Below are positions 5,656-45,544 of a stretch of 45,883 nt of DNA, piece by piece. Source of the stretch: Anaerolineales bacterium (GTDB taxonomy: Bacteria; Chloroflexota; Anaerolineae; Anaerolineales; JABWBV01). The DNA lies in assembly GCA_013359445.1 (NCBI GenBank), contig JABWBV010000002.1, positions 1 through 45,883 on the forward strand, in the 5' to 3' direction. The notes beneath the pieces are model-generated. The model was given only the letters and a program-made list of their open reading frames with translations. It made no database searches and was not told the origin of the DNA. The first letter of the stretch is position 1. Every line of letters starts with the position of its first letter. The position numbers and the translations under genes were made by a program.

Positions 5656-5846
5656 TCCCCCGCCTCCCTTTCAATCACAGCATACTTCCGAAGGTTCAAC
5701 CCAACGTGCTTTCAGAATGGTCTCAAACTTCAAAAATTTTATCGTTGTCAATCTTTGGAAGCCTGCCGTCCCTCTCACCAAACCTTTAACTCTGATTCAT
5801 ACGATGTTTAAGTCCCCGAGGATAATAGAGATACATCCTCCTCCCC

Positions 5847-5885
5847 AAAAAAGCCGCACTCAGGAAAACCTGATGTGCGGCTTTT
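5847..5885. terminator. Intrinsic terminator-like hairpin (bidirectional)
   Basis: aaaaaagccgcactcagg-aaaa-cctgatgtgcggctttt. Confidence 0.7.
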
Positions 5886-5899
5886 AGGTTAAAAGGGTT

Positions 5900-5922
5900 T
5901 GGTATAATTCGGCAAATAGGAG
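5900..5922 (+). promoter_or_regulatory. Extended -10 promoter and RBS of Uma2 gene
   Basis: TGGTATAAT at 5900-5908; AGGAG at 5918-5922, 7 nt before ATG 5930. Confidence 0.55.
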
Positions 5923-5929
5923 TTTTCCA

Positions 5930-6640
5930 ATGGTTACATTTGTTGCCCCACAAGAATTATCCGCCTCCGACCGCACCCCAAAGCGGATCAAGATGAGCTA
6001 CGAAGAATATCTCCAATTCACTACCGATGCCCAAATCGTAGAATGGGTAGAAGGGGAGGCGATTGTCTACATGCCGCCAATTCATTTACATCAACGCATT
6101 GCGAATTTTTTGAATCTCTTAATTAGTTTCTTTGTTGAGCGTCTTGATTTAGGGGTAGTTATCATTCCCCCCTTTGAAGTCAAACTTTGGCCCGGCGGCC
6201 CCTCCCGCGAACCAGACCTGATCTTCATCAGCGCCAGCAACAAAACCTCTCTCACGCGGGAAAGATTTAAAGGTGCGCCTGATCTGGCTATCGAAATCGT
6301 CTCTCAGGGCAGTGCCACCGAAGACCGTGTCCGCAAATTCACCGAATATGAAAAAGCAGGCGTCCGCGAATATTGGCTGATTGACCCACGCCCACGGAAG
6401 CAACAGGCCGATTTTTATGTCTTGGGCGAAGACGGGTTCTTTCACTCCCAACCGATTGAAGACGACGGCGTTTATCGTTCGACCGTTATCCCCGATTTCT
6501 GGTTCAACGTAGATTGGCTTTTTGGCGAGGAACTACCCCCCGCCCAATCTGCCCTCGCCGAAATCATGCTCACCCACCCAAACGTATCCCCGGAAGAAAA
6601 AACGGCCTACGAAATTCTCCTCAAAGCCAAACGAAAATAA
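5930..6640 (+). CDS. Uma2 family (DUF820) PD-(D/E)xK putative endonuclease
   Basis: REPDLIFI, GAPDLAIEIVS, YEKAGVREYWLIDP. Confidence 0.92.
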   Translation: MVTFVAPQELSASDRTPKRIKMSYEEYLQFTTDAQIVEWVEGEAIVYMPPIHLHQRIANFLNLLISFFVERLDLGVVIIPPFEVKLWPGGPSREPDLIFISASNKTSLTRERFKGAPDLAIEIVSQGSATEDRVRKFTEYEKAGVREYWLIDPRPRKQQADFYVLGEDGFFHSQPIEDDGVYRSTVIPDFWFNVDWLFGEELPPAQSALAEIMLTHPNVSPEEKTAYEILLKAKRK

Positions 6641-11362: not shown

Positions 11363-11713
11363 CTACCCTTGATGTTCCAACCCCAACTCCGCCGCCAACG
11401 CATAAAACCGCTTTGCCTCCTCCACCTTCCCCAACTCCTCATACGATTTCCCCATGTTGACATACAACGACGGATAAAACGCCTTCACCCGTTCGTCGTT
11501 CACGGCGTCTGCCCGGTTGAGCGCTTCCTGATTCCAACGAAAGGTCTCTTCGGGCGTGTCCTGAAAGCGGGCGACGTAATGGGCGGCGATGCAGGCTTCG
11601 TAGTCGTCGGTGGCGGAGTTCCAGGCTTGTTGGTAGAGGGCGCGGGCATCGTCGGGGCGGTGTTGGTATTCGGCTTCGGTGCCCTGGATGCAGAGTTGGA
11701 GGGCGAGACTCAC
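11363..11713 (-). CDS. Small TPR-like helical protein
   Basis: Start taken at GTG overlapping the upstream TGA; ARALYQQAW..DDYEACIAAHYVAR..FYPSLYVNMGKSYEELG. Confidence 0.75.
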   Translation of the reverse strand: MSLALQLCIQGTEAEYQHRPDDARALYQQAWNSATDDYEACIAAHYVARFQDTPEETFRWNQEALNRADAVNDERVKAFYPSLYVNMGKSYEELGKVEEAKRFYALAAELGLEHQG

Positions 11714-12099
11714 GGCCTCCAAGCTCCTCTTTCCCTCAGCCGCAACAGCCACTCCACCAACCCCAACCCCGCGGCGATCCACAACGCGAGCGGAAACGTG
11801 ACCACGCGCCCGATCTGGAGCCAGGCCAGGATGCACCCGTACAGACCGATCCACGTCGCCTGCCGGATGATGACGGCCTGAGTAGCCGGGGCTTCGCTGG
11901 GAAAACGGCGGTTGAGAAACGCCATCACCGGCAGGGAAACCCCGGTCAGCAGGAGGAACCAGCACAAGAAAAAGAGCCACCGCGGGCCAACGGTTGGCAG
12001 GGTGTAAATCAACAGCCAACCGAGGCCCGCAAGGCCCAGGCCGCCTAACAGAATGGAGGCCGGGAGAAATTTAATGACAGGGGGAGAAGTATTTTCCAT
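11710..12099 (-). CDS. Hypothetical 4-TM membrane protein
   Basis: Four hydrophobic segments; overlaps both neighbours. Confidence 0.75.
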   Translation of the reverse strand: MENTSPPVIKFLPASILLGGLGLAGLGWLLIYTLPTVGPRWLFFLCWFLLLTGVSLPVMAFLNRRFPSEAPATQAVIIRQATWIGLYGCILAWLQIGRVVTFPLALWIAAGLGLVEWLLRLRERGAWRP

Positions 12100-38776: not shown

Positions 38777-39007
38777 GGACCCGTGGGAGGAAAATTCAGG
38801 GCCAGGTCTGCAATGTCAGAATTTCTAAACCTGTGGGGAAATGCAAAACCTGACCCCATTCTTTTGCGTAGGTACACTGAGAATCTTAAATCCCCAAGTA
38901 CAATAGAATCCTGTATAGTAAGCTTTTCCGTACTTCCTCCTTTTGGTGAGTGGTACGTTTTTCCAGATTTACAGTATGGGTTAATCTCTGATTTTTGTGT
39001 CCCCCCT

Positions 39008-39808
39008 ATGAATACCACCGCTTACCGCTACCCAAACGAAATCCTCATTCTCACCGGCACACTCTTCCTCGTTTTTGCCGTTATCCTTCTCACTTCCACC
39101 GCTACCTTTTGTCTGAGTGGGATATTTATTGTCTTCTTTTTTGCGATGGCCTATTTCAGCGTCCGTTCCCATCACAGGGCGCTGATGCAACACGGCTACC
39201 GTGTCACCCATCAAAACGCGCCCAAACTGGCTGAAATTTTGGACGACGCGGCAAACCGGCTCAAAGTTGAACCCGTTGAAGTGTACGTCATCCGTAGCAA
39301 TGCCCTCAACGCCTACACCTTTGGTATCAGCACCCCAAAAGTCATTGTCATCACCGATAGTCTGCTCAAAGTCCTCGACGCGGACGAACTGCAATATGTC
39401 ATCGGCCACGAGATGGGGCATGTCAAACTCGGCCACACCTGGCTCAATTCCATCATCGGCGGCATGGCGGGGATTCCCAGCCCGTACCTGGCGTTTGCCG
39501 TGTTGCATCTTGCGTTTCGCTCCTGGAATCGCGCTTGTGAATTTTCCGCCGACCGCGCGGGCATCCTTGCCAACGGCAATCCCCGCAAAGCGATCACCGC
39601 GCTCATCAAAATTGGTTCCGGAGGCCGCGCCCGCACGGACGCCGAACTCGCGCGAGCCTACGCCGCCCTTGATGCCCAAGACGACACCCTCGCCGGGAAC
39701 TTGGGCGAATTATTGGGCACGCATCCGTTGATGATTAAGCGGATCGAAAAAATTAAGGGGTATGCCGGGTCGAAGCAGTATCGCGACCTCATTTCTCAGA
39801 TTAGATAA
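39008..39808 (+). CDS. M48 family (HtpX-like) zinc metallopeptidase
   Basis: NAYTFG, GHEMGH, CEFSADRAG, THP..IKRI; start taken at MNTTAYRYPNE. Confidence 0.9.
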   Translation: MNTTAYRYPNEILILTGTLFLVFAVILLTSTATFCLSGIFIVFFFAMAYFSVRSHHRALMQHGYRVTHQNAPKLAEILDDAANRLKVEPVEVYVIRSNALNAYTFGISTPKVIVITDSLLKVLDADELQYVIGHEMGHVKLGHTWLNSIIGGMAGIPSPYLAFAVLHLAFRSWNRACEFSADRAGILANGNPRKAITALIKIGSGGRARTDAELARAYAALDAQDDTLAGNLGELLGTHPLMIKRIEKIKGYAGSKQYRDLISQIR

Positions 39809-39820
39809 TCATCAAATGTC

Positions 39821-39850
39821 TTGACCCCTCCACAAACCGTATGGTAAACT
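39821..39850 (+). promoter_or_regulatory. Putative sigma70 promoter of the leader/GNAT/ABC operon
   Basis: TTGACC-N18-TAAACT with extended -10 TGn. Confidence 0.55.
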
Positions 39851-39897
39851 GACTTCACTGGCTCAAAAAGCCTGAATTTTTCAAAGGAGACGCACGC

Positions 39898-39999
39898 GTG
39901 AATTACTGCATGTTCAATAACCTCAATGCTCGCTTCACCAAATCCGCCGTTGGTTTTGGTGGATACGCGCCTTGTCGTAGTGCGTCTGTATGCCGGTAG
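39898..39999 (+). CDS. Putative 33-aa leader (attenuator) peptide
   Basis: AAGGAG at 39884-39889, GTG start; MNYCMFNNLNARFTKSAVGFGGYAPCRSASVCR; 3' part complementary to the downstream terminator. Confidence 0.65.
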   Translation: MNYCMFNNLNARFTKSAVGFGGYAPCRSASVCR

Positions 40000-40019
40000 G
40001 TTAACCCCTCATCTCAACC

Positions 40020-40056
40020 AGCCACGGATGCACCAACGACGCTCCGTGGCTTTTTT
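40020..40056 (+). terminator. Attenuator terminator 1
   Basis: agccacgga-N14-tccgtggct followed by a U-run. Confidence 0.8.
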
Positions 40057-40106
40057 GTTTAATTGGGAACTTTTCGGAATTCGTAGGAATTCATAGGAAC
40101 TTCCCC

Positions 40107-40141
40107 AAAAGCCACGGAACCCAGAACCCCGTGGCTTTTTT
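40107..40141 (+). terminator. Tandem terminator 2 (same stem sequence as terminator 1)
   Basis: aaaagccacgg-N11-ccgtggctttttt. Confidence 0.8.
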
Positions 40142-40313
40142 CGTTAAACATTGAAGGAAGAAAAAATGGAACGCATAAAAATGGTAAGAAAGTAAAGAAA
40201 CAGGAATTTGCAGGAACTTTTGCCCCTCAATTCCCCCATTCTCACAGTGACCCTCCTCACCACTCCCCACACTTCACGAGTCACGCATCATGAATCATTA
40301 GGAACCAAAAATA

Positions 40314-43300
40314 ATGACCTCCTCCGAACAAACCTACACCCTCCACCCCTACCACCCCCGCTTCGCCGCCGGGATGGCCCAAATGTGGAACGAATCCGAT
40401 CACCAGTGGCCGGGAACCTTCACCAAAGGCGTCCCCTTCGACGAACCACGCATCCTGGAATGGATGGAACGCGTCGCCGCCATTATCAAATTTGTCATCG
40501 AAGAAGACCAGACCGGCAAAATCGTCGGCTACGGCGACCTCTGGGAAGAGACCATGCGCCCCGGCGCGTGTTACGTCGCCCTGCTCAACGTCCACCCCGA
40601 TCATCAAGGGCACAGCCTCGCTCGTCGGATGTTGCACGAAATGGTCAACTGGGCGACCGAACACGGCTACGACAAGCTGACCATCGGCACCTGGCCCTCC
40701 AACCTGAAAGCCATGCCGCTCTACAAAAAAGTCGGCTTTTTCTGGCAACCGGGCACCGGCGTCTTCATGGAAAACTACGTCCCCGCCGTGCGCCAGCTCC
40801 CCCTGGCCAAAACCTTCTTCGAGCGCCACGACTGGTACCGCGACTACCAACGCGACCTCAAACAGATCGAAGACGAAATGCGCCACCCCAAAACCGGCGA
40901 TACCAAAGTCTACACCCTCCGTTGGGCCGCCGATGGCGACCTGCTGGAAGCGGTCTTTGATCGCAACGGGCAACGCCTCGCGGGCCTCGCCACCAACGAT
41001 TTCGCCGCGTACACCCGGATCGGGGACAGCGAACCCGCGCAGGGTGTCACCTACCCGGTCGAATGGGAAGTGAGCAACACCACCACCGGAGACCGCGCCC
41101 GCACGATGTCCGTGTCCCTGTTCGCAAGCGGCGACCCCGGCATCGAAGTCACCCACCGTGCGACCTTTGACCTTGCCCCCGGGGAAACCCGTCTCCTCAA
41201 CTCCACCTACCGCGTCGCCCACGACGCCCCCAAGTTCGAGGTGGAGGACCACGAAAGGCTGGTGCCGCGCCTCAACACGCTCTTCGTCGTGGACGGGCAG
41301 GTGGTGGAGTTTGGAAGTGGTCTGCGGTATCGCCCCCCTGTCGAATTCAGCCTCGGCCCGAATGGGATCACCCTGATGCCCGGTCAGGCCAAAACCGTTC
41401 ATTTACAACTGAAAAATCGCACCCAACACCCCCTTGAAGTGGCTGTGACCGTCATCCCCGATCCCACGTTTGGGGTAAATTGGACGCGGGAGCATATCAC
41501 CGTCCCCGCGAAGGGGCAGGCGGGCCTCCCGATCACCCTCACCCCTACGCGGGGTGGCGAAATCCCCCTCACCGTACAAGCCTCGTTCACCATCGAAGGC
41601 CAGGCGATCACCACCCCCGCCAAAATCCTGCCTTTGCTTGCCCTCGAACCAGGTGGGCTGGCGGTTGGGCGGGAGGAAGACGCGTGGCTGGTGGAAAATG
41701 ACTTTTTCCGCTTGCATCTCAAACGCAAAGGGGCCTGGGCCACGCTGACGAATAAAACCACGCGCCAACGCACCGTCCTCTTTGCCGAGGAAATCGGGCC
41801 GCCGTTTGTTCCGTGGGAGTTGGAAGATACGCTCTACGACTTGCACGCGGCGCATGAAAACGGCGCGATTCGCCTGACCGCGCGCGCGGCGTCCGCTCGT
41901 TTCCCCGGCCTGGTGGTCACACGGGAAATGATCGTCACCGCGACCCCGTTGGTGGCGATTCGCCATCGCGTGGTCAACACCGGTTCGGTCTCGCACGAGT
42001 TTCAAATCCGCCCGGGCCTGGAGTTTATGCAGTACGAACACGCCCAATTGACCCTGCCCTTGCGCGAACGCCTGATCCAGGAACATGGTTCAATGTTCGG
42101 CGGTGCCCATCACGACATTCCCGAAGACCTCGCGCGCTTTGCCGAACCCTGGATTGCATATGAGGAAAACGGGCAAGTGGCGGGGGCCATCTGGCCTGCG
42201 AGCACGGAAAAAGTGACGCGAAATTGGGAATTTTTCCTCTTCACGCCCAAACAGACGCTTGCCCCCCAGGAAGTGTTTGAAAGTGATGCTTACCACATCC
42301 TGTGCGGGCCGGGAGATTGGCGCGTCGTCCGCCAGACATGGGCGCGGCTGACGGGCAAGTCCATCGAACCTGTGACTCCCAAACGGCACTTCGAGGTTGA
42401 ACTGACCCCTAACCCGTTGCTCACCCTCGCCGAGGACGTGCATGCCTGCCTCAAACTGACGAACACCCGCAAACTCCCCCTGACCGGCACCGTCAAAGTG
42501 ACCGCGCCCGAAGGGTGGCAGGTCAGTTCCAATGGCGCTTCCACGCAATCCTGCGAAGTCCCCTTCGCCGACCTGACCCACGAAACTCCGGTCGAATGGC
42601 CGGTGCGTTTCCACGGCCTGCCCCAACCCGGCGCGTTTGAAGGCCACCTGCACTTTAACACTCAACGGTTTGACCACACCCAACCCATCACGATCCTCCG
42701 GCTTGGGCGCGGCACAGACGTACATATCACCCCCTCTACGCGCGAAGGGTTCGCCCTCTGGCAGATCAACAACGGTCAAACGGCCTGGGAAATCGCCCCG
42801 GACTTTCACCGCGGCATCATCTCCTGGCGCGAAACGGGTCAAGACACCTCGCACCTCTTCACCTCCTTCCCGCAAGACGGCGAACTGAGTTGGATGAAAC
42901 CCTTCTTCGGCGGTTTGCGCCCCACCCTGTACGACCCCAAAGAGGGCCGCGGCTGGCCGGGCAAACTCCACACCGAAACGTTTACCGCCACCCCCGTGGA
43001 AGGTTCCGACATGCACGGGTTGGCCTGGAAAGGTCTCCGTCTGATCGCCGACCTGCAAAAAGAAAATTGTCGGGGTCTGCGCGCCGAACTGGATTACCTG
43101 ACCCTGCCAGGGAGCAACGTCCTCAAGTTTGTCTTCCGGCTCGTCAATTTGACCAGCACCTATCACATCATGGAACCAGGCCTCCTCATCTTCCCCAGTG
43201 TGGATGGGGATCGAGAACACACCACCCTGCACAACGCCGAACTCCATCGGAAACGCACCGACCAAACCGCCTGGGTGATCTCGGACGGATGGGCCGCCGT

Positions 43301-43511
43301 GGAAAATACCGAAACCGGACGCACCCTGGTCGCCATCCCCGCCAGTGGCAAAAAACAGTCCCAACTGATGGACTGGGGCAACGATGGTGGCAACATGCAC
43401 ATCTTTGACACCACCGAACTGGCCCCCAATGCCACGGCTGAACTCGTCGTTTACCTGGCCCTTGCCGGTTCGCTGGAAGAAGCCCGGCGATACGGCGCAT
43501 TGGCGAAGTAG
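40314..43511 (+). CDS. Large GNAT N-acetyltransferase-domain protein (1065 aa)
   Basis: N-terminal GNAT (LNVHPDHQGHSLARRML, NLKAMPLYKKVGF) followed by about 850 aa of beta-rich domains. Confidence 0.85.
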   Translation: MTSSEQTYTLHPYHPRFAAGMAQMWNESDHQWPGTFTKGVPFDEPRILEWMERVAAIIKFVIEEDQTGKIVGYGDLWEETMRPGACYVALLNVHPDHQGHSLARRMLHEMVNWATEHGYDKLTIGTWPSNLKAMPLYKKVGFFWQPGTGVFMENYVPAVRQLPLAKTFFERHDWYRDYQRDLKQIEDEMRHPKTGDTKVYTLRWAADGDLLEAVFDRNGQRLAGLATNDFAAYTRIGDSEPAQGVTYPVEWEVSNTTTGDRARTMSVSLFASGDPGIEVTHRATFDLAPGETRLLNSTYRVAHDAPKFEVEDHERLVPRLNTLFVVDGQVVEFGSGLRYRPPVEFSLGPNGITLMPGQAKTVHLQLKNRTQHPLEVAVTVIPDPTFGVNWTREHITVPAKGQAGLPITLTPTRGGEIPLTVQASFTIEGQAITTPAKILPLLALEPGGLAVGREEDAWLVENDFFRLHLKRKGAWATLTNKTTRQRTVLFAEEIGPPFVPWELEDTLYDLHAAHENGAIRLTARAASARFPGLVVTREMIVTATPLVAIRHRVVNTGSVSHEFQIRPGLEFMQYEHAQLTLPLRERLIQEHGSMFGGAHHDIPEDLARFAEPWIAYEENGQVAGAIWPASTEKVTRNWEFFLFTPKQTLAPQEVFESDAYHILCGPGDWRVVRQTWARLTGKSIEPVTPKRHFEVELTPNPLLTLAEDVHACLKLTNTRKLPLTGTVKVTAPEGWQVSSNGASTQSCEVPFADLTHETPVEWPVRFHGLPQPGAFEGHLHFNTQRFDHTQPITILRLGRGTDVHITPSTREGFALWQINNGQTAWEIAPDFHRGIISWRETGQDTSHLFTSFPQDGELSWMKPFFGGLRPTLYDPKEGRGWPGKLHTETFTATPVEGSDMHGLAWKGLRLIADLQKENCRGLRAELDYLTLPGSNVLKFVFRLVNLTSTYHIMEPGLLIFPSVDGDREHTTLHNAELHRKRTDQTAWVISDGWAAVENTETGRTLVAIPASGKKQSQLMDWGNDGGNMHIFDTTELAPNATAELVVYLALAGSLEEARRYGALAK

Positions 43512-43798: not shown

Positions 43799-45544
43799 AT
43801 GAAAATCCCCTTACGAGAATACTGGTCCCTCCTCGGCACCTACCTCCGCCCGCAATGGAAGCGTGCCTCGATCATGCTCGTCCTTCTCCTGGCCTCCATT
43901 GGCTTGCAGTTGTACGTTCCGCAGATCGTGCGCGCGTTCATTGACGGGGCCACGGTGGGGACACCCGTCAGCGAACTGACGCGCCTCGCGGTCCTCTTCC
44001 TTACCCTGGCGCTGATCAAAGAAATCGCCAGCGCCGCCACCACCTACGTCGGGCAGGACGTCCGCTGGCGGGCGACCAACGCGCTTCGACGCGATCTGGC
44101 CCTGCATTGTATGCGGCTGGACATGCGTTTCCACAACCTGAAAACCCCCGGCGAGATGATCGAGCGGGTGGACAGCGACGTGGACGAACTCTCCAACTTC
44201 TTCTCGCACTTTGTCGTCGAGATTATGGGCAACGCCGTCCTCCTCGTCGGGGTGTTGGTTCTGCTCTTTCAGGAAGACCTTCGGATTGGCCTAGCGTTCC
44301 TGGGATTCTGCGTCATCACCGTGCTGATTCTCATCCGCGTCATCCCCTTCGCCGTTGGGCAATGGGAAAAAGCGCGCGAAGCGAACTCCGACCTCTTCGG
44401 GTTCCTCGAAGAGCGGCTCGCCGGAACGGAAGACATCGCCGCGCTCGGCGCGGGGCCGTACATCCTCCGCCGTTTTGCCGAGGCCCTCACCGTGTTTTTG
44501 AACGACACGCGCAAAGCTTGGGTCAAAGGCAGTGTGATCTGGCTCGCCTCGCTCATCACCTTCACGTTCGGGAACATCACCGCCCTCGCGATGGGCGCGT
44601 GGCTCTTTCAACAAGGCGCCATCACCATCGGCGCGGTGTACATCATCTTCCACTATAACGAGATGTTGCGCCGCCCGCTGGAGACCATCACCCGGCAGAT
44701 GCAAGACCTGCAACGCGCGGGGGGAAGCGTTGCCCGGATCAAAGAACTGTTCAACATGGCCTCCACCACCCAAGATGGGACGGGCGAACCGCTCTCGGAC
44801 GGGGCGCTGGCCCTGGCCTTTGACGGCGTCACCTTCAGCTACAACGGCGAAGATGTCACCCTGGCGAACGTGGATTTCCGGCTCGAACCGGGGCAGGTGC
44901 TCGGGCTGTTGGGGCGGACGGGGAGCGGTAAAACGACCATCGCCCGCCTGCTCTTCCGGCTCTACGACCCCACGCAGGGGCGCATCCGCCTGAACGGGGT
45001 GGACCTCCGTGAGCCGAAACTGGATGATGTCCGCGCCCGCGTCGGCATGGTCACGCAGGATGTCCAGTTGTTCCGCGCTACTGTGCGGGACAACCTGACT
45101 TTCTTTGACCGGAGCATTCCCGATGCCCGCGTGGAAGAAGTGCTGAAAGACCTCGGCCTCTGGCACTGGGTTGAATCTCTGCCGGACGGGCTGAACACCG
45201 AACTTGAATCGGACGGCGGTGGCCTGTCGGCGGGGGAGGCCCAACTGTTGGCCTTTACCCGTGTCTTTCTCCATAATCCCGGCCTGGTGATCCTGGACGA
45301 AGCCTCGTCCCGGCTTGACCCGGCCACCGAACAACTTATCGAGCGGGCGGTGGACAAACTTTTTGACAACCGCACCGCCATCATTATCGCCCACCGTCTC
45401 GCGACGGTTCAGCGGGCGGACACCATTATGATCCTTGAAAACGGGCACATCGTCGAACACGGCTCCCGCGAATACCTTGCGACAAACGCCTCTTCCCGGT
45501 TCTTCCAGTTGATGCAAACGGGAATGCAGGAGGTGTTGGCATGA
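43799..45544 (+). CDS. ABC exporter, fused permease/ATP-binding (MdlA/B-like half transporter)
   Basis: TM domain, GRTGSGKT, LSAGEAQLL signature, ILDEA, IAHRL. Confidence 0.95.
   Translation: MKIPLREYWSLLGTYLRPQWKRASIMLVLLLASIGLQLYVPQIVRAFIDGATVGTPVSELTRLAVLFLTLALIKEIASAATTYVGQDVRWRATNALRRDLALHCMRLDMRFHNLKTPGEMIERVDSDVDELSNFFSHFVVEIMGNAVLLVGVLVLLFQEDLRIGLAFLGFCVITVLILIRVIPFAVGQWEKAREANSDLFGFLEERLAGTEDIAALGAGPYILRRFAEALTVFLNDTRKAWVKGSVIWLASLITFTFGNITALAMGAWLFQQGAITIGAVYIIFHYNEMLRRPLETITRQMQDLQRAGGSVARIKELFNMASTTQDGTGEPLSDGALALAFDGVTFSYNGEDVTLANVDFRLEPGQVLGLLGRTGSGKTTIARLLFRLYDPTQGRIRLNGVDLREPKLDDVRARVGMVTQDVQLFRATVRDNLTFFDRSIPDARVEEVLKDLGLWHWVESLPDGLNTELESDGGGLSAGEAQLLAFTRVFLHNPGLVILDEASSRLDPATEQLIERAVDKLFDNRTAIIIAHRLATVQRADTIMILENGHIVEHGSREYLATNASSRFFQLMQTGMQEVLA

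Follow-up and report, generated by a model that had tools for sequence, protein, structure and literature searches.

Among described leaders, those of vmlR and bmrB-bmrCD in Bacillus subtilis come closest to the element reported here: ribosome stalling on an upstream open reading frame (uORF) blocks an anti-antiterminator and permits an antiterminator (PMC9226507, PMC4191407), and bmrB-bmrCD is described as induced by ribosome-targeting drugs via the translating ribosome (PMC4191407). In this study, we analysed a 45,883-nt (45.9-kb) stretch of contig JABWBV010000002.1 from an Anaerolineales bacterium (hereafter the window), in which a 505-nt intergenic gap between an M48-family peptidase gene and a GNAT gene houses an element at 39821-40141 that is probably the promoter and leader of a GNAT-ABC operon, a ribosome-mediated transcription attenuator built on three helices that compete. 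To our knowledge, the regulatory RNAs of Chloroflexota are almost uncharted, with few riboregulators known in the phylum. The ermK leader of Bacillus licheniformis, a leader-peptide attenuator, reportedly carries two rho-independent terminators in series ahead of a resistance gene, an arrangement that bears on the second half of our element.

A search of a protein collection returned 75 homologues of the GNAT protein—the closest named Anaerolineales/Anaerolineae at 76% and 67% identity, followed by others at no more than 48%—and an alignment of 39 GNAT homologues, used for a genome scan, led to 80 loci with a GNAT homologue, which were fetched and are designated here by L-numbers. When the intergenic DNA of the window was compared with L001 using BLASTN, 77% identity was found over 348 nt, against only 47% for the best GNAT segment from the same locus; shorter matches occurred in L002, L003, L005, L021 and L026, each directly upstream of a GNAT homologue. 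A word search with the core GTCGTAGTGCGTCT, accepting at most three substitutions and demanding a T-run 60-90 nt downstream, collected 13 elements, to which L013, L016 and L017, with looser core variants, were added by inspecting upstream regions, making 16 analysed elements. A covariance model (R1) built from 15 elements, with the stem of terminator 1 (T1) as its only structure, was then run over the window and the 80 loci; it recovered all 15 training sequences, scored L017 at 31 bits and contributed two new full-length members with looser core variants, L044 (32.7 bits) and L034 (31.4 bits). With the window and 17 of the 80 loci, the total comes to 18 elements from 81 sources, mostly from Chloroflexota/Anaerolineae; weaker R1 matches of 13-24 bits, including those in L051, L062, L076, L067, L037 and L068 (13-23 bits), were left uncounted.

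All 17 of these loci carry the element on the GNAT strand, upstream of the GNAT homologue or its operon, while L006, L009, L010, L012, L015 and L019 are without such an element ahead of their GNAT homologue. The M48, WS/DGAT and HEAT genes upstream of the element had no TBLASTN match in the 80 loci and, given this lack of synteny, the element belongs with the downstream operon. Rfam 15 gave no match at gathering thresholds anywhere in the window, a permissive Rfam search of 39700-40400 returned only terminator-driven sub-threshold matches (18.2 and 17.5 bits against thresholds of 55 and 59) and no tRNA or tmRNA genes were found. The shared layout, from 5' to 3', comprises a promoter, a Shine-Dalgarno (SD) sequence, a uORF, the core GTCGYAGTGCGYCT (segment B), a variable spacer, T1, a spacer of 17-65 nt and terminator 2 (T2). 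This leader family is well supported, new and outside Rfam; its overall kind, the ribosome-mediated transcription attenuator, is already known.

Comparative statistics relied on two alignments: A2, covering the five closest genomes (group 1), and A5, a structure-blind MAFFT alignment of 15 of the 16 elements, with L017 omitted. Full-leader MAFFT alignment A3 had misplaced the 5' arm of T2 in three sequences and A4 had misplaced B of L017; pairing statistics between the two terminators were done per sequence. Coordinates below refer to the window, and all leader features lie on the forward strand.

T1 (40020-40056) consists of a hairpin at 40020-40051 and a T6 U-tract, with a 3' arm, D, of TCCGTGGCT at 40043-40051. 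Its 5' arm and loop form segment C (40024-40040; ACGGATGCAC at 40024-40033 and ACGAC at 40036-40040), which is complementary to segment B (39974-39989), the core GTCGTAGTGCGTCT(GT) with its 8-nt centre GTGCGTCT at 39980-39987. GTGCGTCTGT pairs with ACGGATGCAC over 10 bp, two of them G-U, and GTCGT pairs with ACGAC. An earlier account of this DNA, made without database searches and called here the sequence-only reading, had proposed just this pairing of 39974-39989 with 40024-40040 and the resulting mutual exclusion of T1 and the 3' end of the uORF. The pairing is real, at −21.0 kcal/mol by RNAduplex (z = −3.7 against shuffles), and compensatory changes on A5 speak for the mutual exclusion: C:D was 93.3% paired, with four pairs changed on both sides and a score reached by none of 500 shuffles, and B:C was paired in 84.1% of cells over 15 pairs, five of them doubly changed, against 30-59% in slid controls. 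Within the 10-bp centre of B:C, pair 24-87 is C-G in nine sequences, U-A in four and U-G in two.

A third helix, absent from the sequence-only reading, pairs B with the region around the uORF start. In the five closest genomes, RNAalifold set AGAYGCRC, directly 3' of the SD, opposite GUGCGUCU to form a 9-bp helix, A:B, of which eight pairs are kept in all five with G-U/A-U changes only; the ninth is a G-A mismatch in two of the five, including the window. Segment A of the window (AGACGCAC, 39888-39895), the 5' strand of this anti-antiterminator, lies between SD and start codon, and its duplex with B reaches −17.1 kcal/mol. Segment A is shifted onto the SD in L027, L020 and L021, and onto the start codon and codons 2-4 in L004, L007, L011, L016 and L018, and the best duplex with B falls within −18 to +14 of the start codon in 16/16 elements. 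Across these elements, duplex energies span −14.3 to −24.3 kcal/mol for A:B, −14.4 to −25.4 kcal/mol for B:C and −15.6 to −28.6 kcal/mol for the T1 hairpin; compared with mononucleotide shuffles, z was −2 or lower for A:B in 11 elements and for B:C in 12. The T1 hairpin with its T-run is found in 15 of the 16, the T-run being degenerate in L016, and T1 lies at least 20 nt downstream of the uORF stop codon. A simple terminator scanner passed over both T1 and T2, since it admits loops of no more than 8 nt and theirs measure 11-14 nt.

Every analysed element (16/16) carries an SD-like run and a uORF of 12-33 codons, and both were seen by eye in L034 and L044 as well. In the window, the SD AAGGAG stands at 39884-39889 (AAAGGAGA is invariant in A2) and the uORF, MNYCMFNNLNARFTKSAVGFGGYAPCRSASVCR, runs for 33 codons from a GTG start to a TAG stop at 39898-39999. 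Counted from the first base of B, the uORF stop begins 17 nt downstream in ten elements, 11 nt downstream in one and 21 nt downstream in two, and it overlaps the start of B in the other three, so that a terminating ribosome would cover B in every element. Presence, SD and stop position are the conserved traits of the uORF. The core is read in the register NGU-GCG-NCN (CGU-GUG-CCU in L013) in 11 of the 16 elements and in another frame in L017 and L027, while the uORFs of L020, L021 and L026 end at a UAG inside the core; the two cysteines of the window peptide are not conserved either, one changing to S or T and the other to A or G. From the varied frames, the uORFs that end at the core and the variable cysteines, we take the conserved object to be an RNA word rather than a peptide.

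Some features of the peptide nonetheless recur. The five closest genomes share the ending G-x-G-G-[FYI]-[AV]-P-x-R-S-A-S-x-x-R, with CGG, AGG or AGA as final Arg codon and TAG, TAA or TGA as stop; to judge from these sequences, the shared ending looks like coding constraint. The last residue is Arg in 10/16 uORFs (codons CGG, AGG, AGA and CGT), which suggests selection on a C-terminal Arg or on termination context. As a separate observation, the word GCNGGTRA recurs around the uORF stop (for example at 39991-39999 of the window). No run of one codon, and no cluster of codons for a sensed amino acid, was apparent in the 16 uORFs, which agrees with the view of the sequence-only reading that this is not an amino-acid attenuator.

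That reading had also offered, as an alternative, that the window peptide is a precursor, GG followed by YAPCRSASVCR, that is modified and exported. In such a scheme the GNAT would modify the peptide, itself processed after GG, and the ABC transporter would export it, a notion with some appeal as GNAT enzymes are reported to acylate some ribosomal peptides (PMC8784127), and as G-x-G-G followed by AP.RSAS..R is common to the five closest genomes. Both cysteines vary, however, the core is read in differing frames (11, 2 and 3 of 16), Pfam finds no C39 peptidase domain in the ABC exporter and no other maturation enzyme is conserved in the operon; we give the precursor explanation almost no credence.

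The consequences of translation for the three helices were explored through constrained folds, in which a ribosome-sized stretch was masked and the RNA refolded for all 16 elements; the results are equilibrium predictions. With no ribosome and T1 complete, the minimum-energy fold combined A:B with C:D in 15 of the 16 (the exception being L001). A ribosome on the start (masking −15 to +15), with RNA made up to C, gave B:C in 15/16 (the exception being L026), and a ribosome on the stop gave C:D in 16/16 and B:C in 0/16.

These folds fit a switch with two OFF states and one ON state. Without a ribosome, A:B would form as an anti-antiterminator and leave C free to build T1 with D, and in this way A:B accounts for termination without translation too. 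Under normal translation, the ribosome would reach the stop and cover B, and C:D would again form. The operon would be switched ON when a loaded ribosome, held at or near the uORF start, masks A and leaves B naked; B would then pair with C as soon as C is made, and this antiterminator would let the polymerase pass T1. Because the uORF spans both strands of A:B, a ribosome at its start can mask A and one at its stop can mask B; with A placed at the SD and start codon, the ON state calls for a ribosome that has loaded yet stands still. It might stall at initiation or within the first few codons, or perhaps a queue of ribosomes might build up from a stall deeper in the uORF.

On this account, the uORF is presumably translated and the logic of the switch presumably runs in the direction just given; by analogy with the Bacillus leaders, whose three-helix logic is the same and which we count as precedent for a ribosome-mediated mechanism, the natural signal would be translation stress, such as ribosome-targeting antibiotics or other compounds. 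The sequence-only reading, too, had a leader-peptide attenuator in which full translation leads to termination and early stalling to read-through. The attenuator is supported by conservation in 18 elements, by compensatory changes and by the constrained folds, and the modelled folds, with the same conservation and compensatory changes, favour that direction. The alignment of upstream regions from orthologous operons that it had called for yielded a uORF in all 16 elements and covarying B:C and C:D, and its promoter, SD, 33-codon open reading frame, T1 and T2 are all present where it had placed them.

Transcription probably starts near 39857, downstream of a promoter-like site at 39821-39850 (−35 TTGACC at 39821-39826, an 18-nt spacer, an extended TG at 39842-39843 and −10 TAAACT at 39845-39850). 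The promoter match alone is not above chance, with two sites in 3 kb against 1.6 expected, and support for the promoter comes from conservation, not from match score: CTTGAC and TGGTA..T are invariant in A2, and TTGAC(A)/TATAAT-like boxes stand at the equivalent place in the remaining members. The transcript would begin with a predicted 5'-terminal hairpin at 39858-39874, a group 1 RNAalifold consensus of five pairs, four of which are changed on both sides in at least one sequence; one pair is U-U in the window copy. A 296-nt stretch was more stable than 200/200 shuffles (z = −4.27). We also considered a 6S-like or free-standing small-RNA fold, as single-sequence folding pairs the 5' end with 39992-39997; it was rejected when comparative folding favoured the local 5' hairpin and A:B.

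It is also conceivable that promoter to T1 constitutes a free-standing gene for a small RNA of ~195 nt or for a small protein, with T2 as a fail-safe and the GNAT operon under its own promoter. A strong promoter-like site and two good terminators do bound a compact unit, T2 and the GNAT start are 172 nt apart in the window, and attenuator RNAs and leader peptides are reported to be able to act in trans (PMC7298713, PMC7968998). A separate promoter downstream of 40141 had been named by the sequence-only reading as a point to check, and no sigma-70-like site was found between 40141 and 40314. In L007, L011, L020, L021 and L026, only 21-47 nt separate T2 from the next gene, which leaves no room for a second promoter in those five loci. 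The position of the element on the same strand upstream of a GNAT homologue or operon in 17/17 loci and the lack of synteny of the upstream M48 gene tell against an independent gene too, and a simple small RNA would have no use for the conserved complementarity of B to the terminator loop. We regard a free-standing gene as improbable and retain the attenuator.

Several observations weigh against a ribosome-mediated attenuator of this design. In folds that had a ribosome on the start and included D, the terminator was the equilibrium structure in 13/16, so that read-through needs kinetic trapping, as in other attenuators. When no ribosome was present and the RNA ended at C, the minimum-energy fold was B:C instead of A:B in about half of the elements, and the translation-free OFF state therefore also relies on A:B forming first. 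A:B in five elements and B:C in four had z above −2, no better than shuffles. The 172-nt gap between T2 and the GNAT in the window might hold a weak promoter of another type. No GNAT, ABC or P-loop protein of the operons reached an NCBIfam resistance-family cut-off, the best sub-cut-off scores being 251 bits against 312 for a DrrA-type match and 32 against 170 for ArsN1a, and every member of the leader family comes from an uncultured genome.

The second terminator, T2 (40107-40141), comprises a hairpin at 40107-40139 and a T6 U-tract, with the 5' arm C' (GCCACGG, 40111-40117) and the 3' arm D' (CCGTGGC, 40129-40135). None of the 16 analysed elements lacks it, and it was also recognised by eye in L034 and L044. 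A GCCACGG...CCGTGGC stem occurs exactly twice in the 45.9-kb window, against 0.02 expected, and none of 100 shuffles had two or more. The arms GCCACGG/CCGTGGC are found in the window, L001, L002, L003, L005, L017 and L027 and the flipped arms GGCCGTGG/CCACGGCC in L004, L007, L011, L013, L016, L018 and L021, while GGCCGCGG occurs in both terminators of L026 and GGCCGTGGA in both terminators of L018. Although the arm sequence varies between lineages, T1 and T2 arms are matched within the genome in 15 of 16 elements. The loops and spacers of T1 and T2 are unalike, which argues against a recent duplication.

Matching arms make D, the 3' arm of T1, complementary to C', the 5' arm of T2. In 15 of the 16 elements the D:C' duplex has an energy of −15 kcal/mol or lower, much like that of the T2 hairpin; in the window it reaches −17.6 kcal/mol against −15.9 for that hairpin. 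The sequence-only reading had named cross-pairing of the twin stems as possible. The D arms of L007 and L021 form a stronger pairing with C' than with C. When D and C' were permuted between genomes, the mean energy was −14.9 kcal/mol against −19.8 observed, and none of 5,000 permutations did as well. Direct opening of T2 by B was considered and rejected, as the T2 loop is not complementary to B; B:C' is weak, at −6.6 to −16.0 kcal/mol against −14.4 to −25.4 for B:C. All nine spacers of at least 36 nt form a hairpin (−5.1 to −18.5 kcal/mol), the seven shorter ones being essentially unstructured; in the window, the spacer hairpin between T1 and T2 occupies 40065-40105, at −13.2 kcal/mol, and contains four GGAAYTY words. 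These hairpins keep D and C' close, which we count in favour of a strand hand-over between the terminators.

In such a hand-over, once B holds C, the freed D would capture C' as it emerges and T2 could not form; in the OFF states, T2 would serve as a back-up terminator that stops polymerase leaking past T1. We put forward tentatively, and with some doubt, that one ribosome-sensing switch opens two intrinsic terminators in series through this D:C' hand-over. If so, low leak and full induction would be had together, T2 being disabled without a sensor of its own, and the hand-over would explain both the matching arms in 15/16 despite drift and flipping and the hairpins in spacers of 36 nt or more. 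Three findings weigh against it: with B:C held, the minimum-energy fold was D:C' in 7/16 and the T2 hairpin in 9/16; the arms of L020 are mismatched (D:C' −12.4 kcal/mol); and the permutation test ignores relatedness, there being about three independent T1/T2 co-changes.

The same data invite another explanation, in which a protein or small ligand picks B:C or C:D and a single RNA-binding antiterminator protein has its two sites in the matching T1 and T2 hairpins. A single sequence-specific binder would keep the arms identical within genomes, as they are, and would suit the 9/16 elements in which T2 still folds at equilibrium with B:C held. We nevertheless consider a binder very improbable: the SD and uORF are universal, no Rfam match was found, B and C are separated by a spacer of variable length and sequence and there is no conserved unpaired pocket, nor is a gene for an RNA-binding regulator conserved nearby. 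A literature search on tandem or twin terminators in attenuators and on a Chloroflexi GNAT leader found no description of the element or of a hand-over, subscription journals lying mostly outside that search.

GGAAYTY words were noted as a feature of their own around T2. Six lie on the forward strand within 154 nt (40066-40102 and 40203-40219): four between T1 and T2 at 40066, 40076, 40086 and 40096, at an exact 10-nt spacing, and two between T2 and the GNAT at 40203 and 40213, again 10 nt apart. The word is not enriched in the window as a whole (31 found against 39 expected), and L001 retains three of the four T1-T2 words, which more distant members lack. One possibility is a helical-phase protein-binding array; others are GGA-type RNA sites or simply the arms of the spacer hairpin.

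The M48-family peptidase gene (38783-39808) is the 5' neighbour of the leader. Downstream, both on the forward strand, the first regulated gene (40314-43511) encodes a 1065-aa protein with an N-terminal GNAT domain (Pfam) followed by ~900 aa of all-beta domains, and the second (43799-45544) encodes a 581-aa, MsbA-like ABC exporter with transmembrane and nucleotide-binding domains (Pfam; NCBIfam matches below cut-offs), the membrane domain beginning at residue 25. An AlphaFold2 (AF2) model of the giant GNAT (pLDDT 88.3) predicts the GNAT domain and then ~900 aa that are almost pure beta; a fold search of this C-terminal region against the PDB was uninformative, returning only generic multi-beta-sandwich proteins at TM-scores of 0.18 or less. 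In the genome scan, GNAT homologues spanned many phyla, archaeal metagenome-assembled genomes included.

The giant GNAT is present in every operon behind the leader, with varying company. Among the 80 loci, an ABC exporter lies 3' of the GNAT in L001, L002, L003, L005, L006 and L012. In L004, the giant GNAT is preceded by genes for an ABC-2 transporter, a P-loop protein, a HAD hydrolase and a PF12746 GNAT, and in L007 and L011 by genes for two small GNATs, a P-loop protein and a HAD hydrolase. In three lineages, RsgA, a 30S-biogenesis GTPase, is encoded between leader and giant GNAT (L027, 4822-5817; L034, 4889-5974; L044, 545-1639); it is the sole downstream protein above a curated NCBIfam cut-off, and its placement gives a hint that the ribosome is a target or a partner of the GNAT family. 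GNATs, HAD hydrolases, P-loop proteins, ABC exporters and RsgA together make up an operon content in keeping with detoxification and care of the ribosome; the antibiotic-inducible detoxification or export system suggested by the sequence-only reading is a candidate role.

RsgA would suit a ribosome-homeostasis operon as well as a drug response, and it bears on the possibility that the same attenuator answers to a physiological signal other than drug-stalled ribosomes. It might report general translation capacity, the rate of initiation, growth phase or (p)ppGpp, or the lack of a single amino acid, for instance Arg. Growth phase also gates bmrCD (PMC4191407), and a terminal Arg written with four codons in 10/16 uORFs points to selection on the amino acid itself. 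Yet a ribosome stalled at that Arg would still cover B and bring about termination rather than induction, no uORF has a run of one codon and the peptide sequences differ widely between groups. We consider such another signal unlikely, and translation stress stays our preferred candidate.

A few leaders outside the 18-member family deserve mention. Upstream of GNAT homologues from Armatimonadota/Hebobacteria (L051, 5690-5910; L062, 5700-5900; L076, 1510-1730), a promoter, an SD and a ~20-codon uORF are followed by a single GCCGTGGG...CCCACGGC terminator, with weak R1 matches of 14.5-23 bits; these leaders may be distant relatives or an independent invention for the same gene. In L008 (Caldilineales), two terminators with the same CGGCCACGG stem stand upstream of the GNAT homologue at 5740-5950, with partial R1 matches and no recognisable core B motif. 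The contig of L013 holds a second leader (11590-11790; 24 bits with R1), made up of a promoter, a 34-codon uORF that encodes FYFTYY and a single terminator, ahead of a prephenate dehydratase gene (PDT and ACT); it looks like a classical aromatic-amino-acid (pheA) attenuator in an Anaerolineae genome. The word GGTCGCTGGT is common to this second leader and the GNAT leader of L013.

The leader family now has a covariance model and 18 members. It provides a first functional handle on the giant GNAT family, linked to ribosome status through the leader and through RsgA in three lineages; if the link is true, a widespread GNAT family of ~1,000-1,100 aa, often beside RsgA, is part of a translation-stress response. 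The co-varying arms of the twin terminators suggest a design principle—one sensor, two gates, low leak—that could be reused in synthetic circuits.

Set beside known systems, the element shares most with the vmlR leader (PMC9226507): both have an anti-antiterminator, an antiterminator and an intrinsic terminator, and in vmlR a ribosome stalled on a short uORF leads to read-through. The vmlR uORF has three codons and lies in the bulge of a local hairpin, however, whereas here 12-33 codons span both strands of a long-range helix; vmlR has one terminator and an SD-sequestering hairpin in place of two terminators with matching arms; and vmlR regulates an ABCF factor rather than a giant GNAT and an ABC exporter, in another phylum and with no sequence similarity. 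The bmrB-bmrCD leader (PMC4191407) resembles ours in having a translated leader peptide followed by an ABC-type exporter, but its single terminator lies inside the 53-codon bmrB reading frame instead of at least 20 nt downstream of the stop codon, and it is not homologous to the Chloroflexota leader. Amino-acid attenuators (trp, phe and his; Rfam Phe_leader RF01859) likewise combine a short open reading frame with alternative hairpins and an intrinsic terminator, and Phe_leader itself matched at 18.2 bits against a gathering threshold of 55, over T2 only. Unlike those attenuators, which carry a run of regulatory codons, the Chloroflexota leader has none, and it places the first segment of its switch on the SD and start region, not inside the open reading frame.

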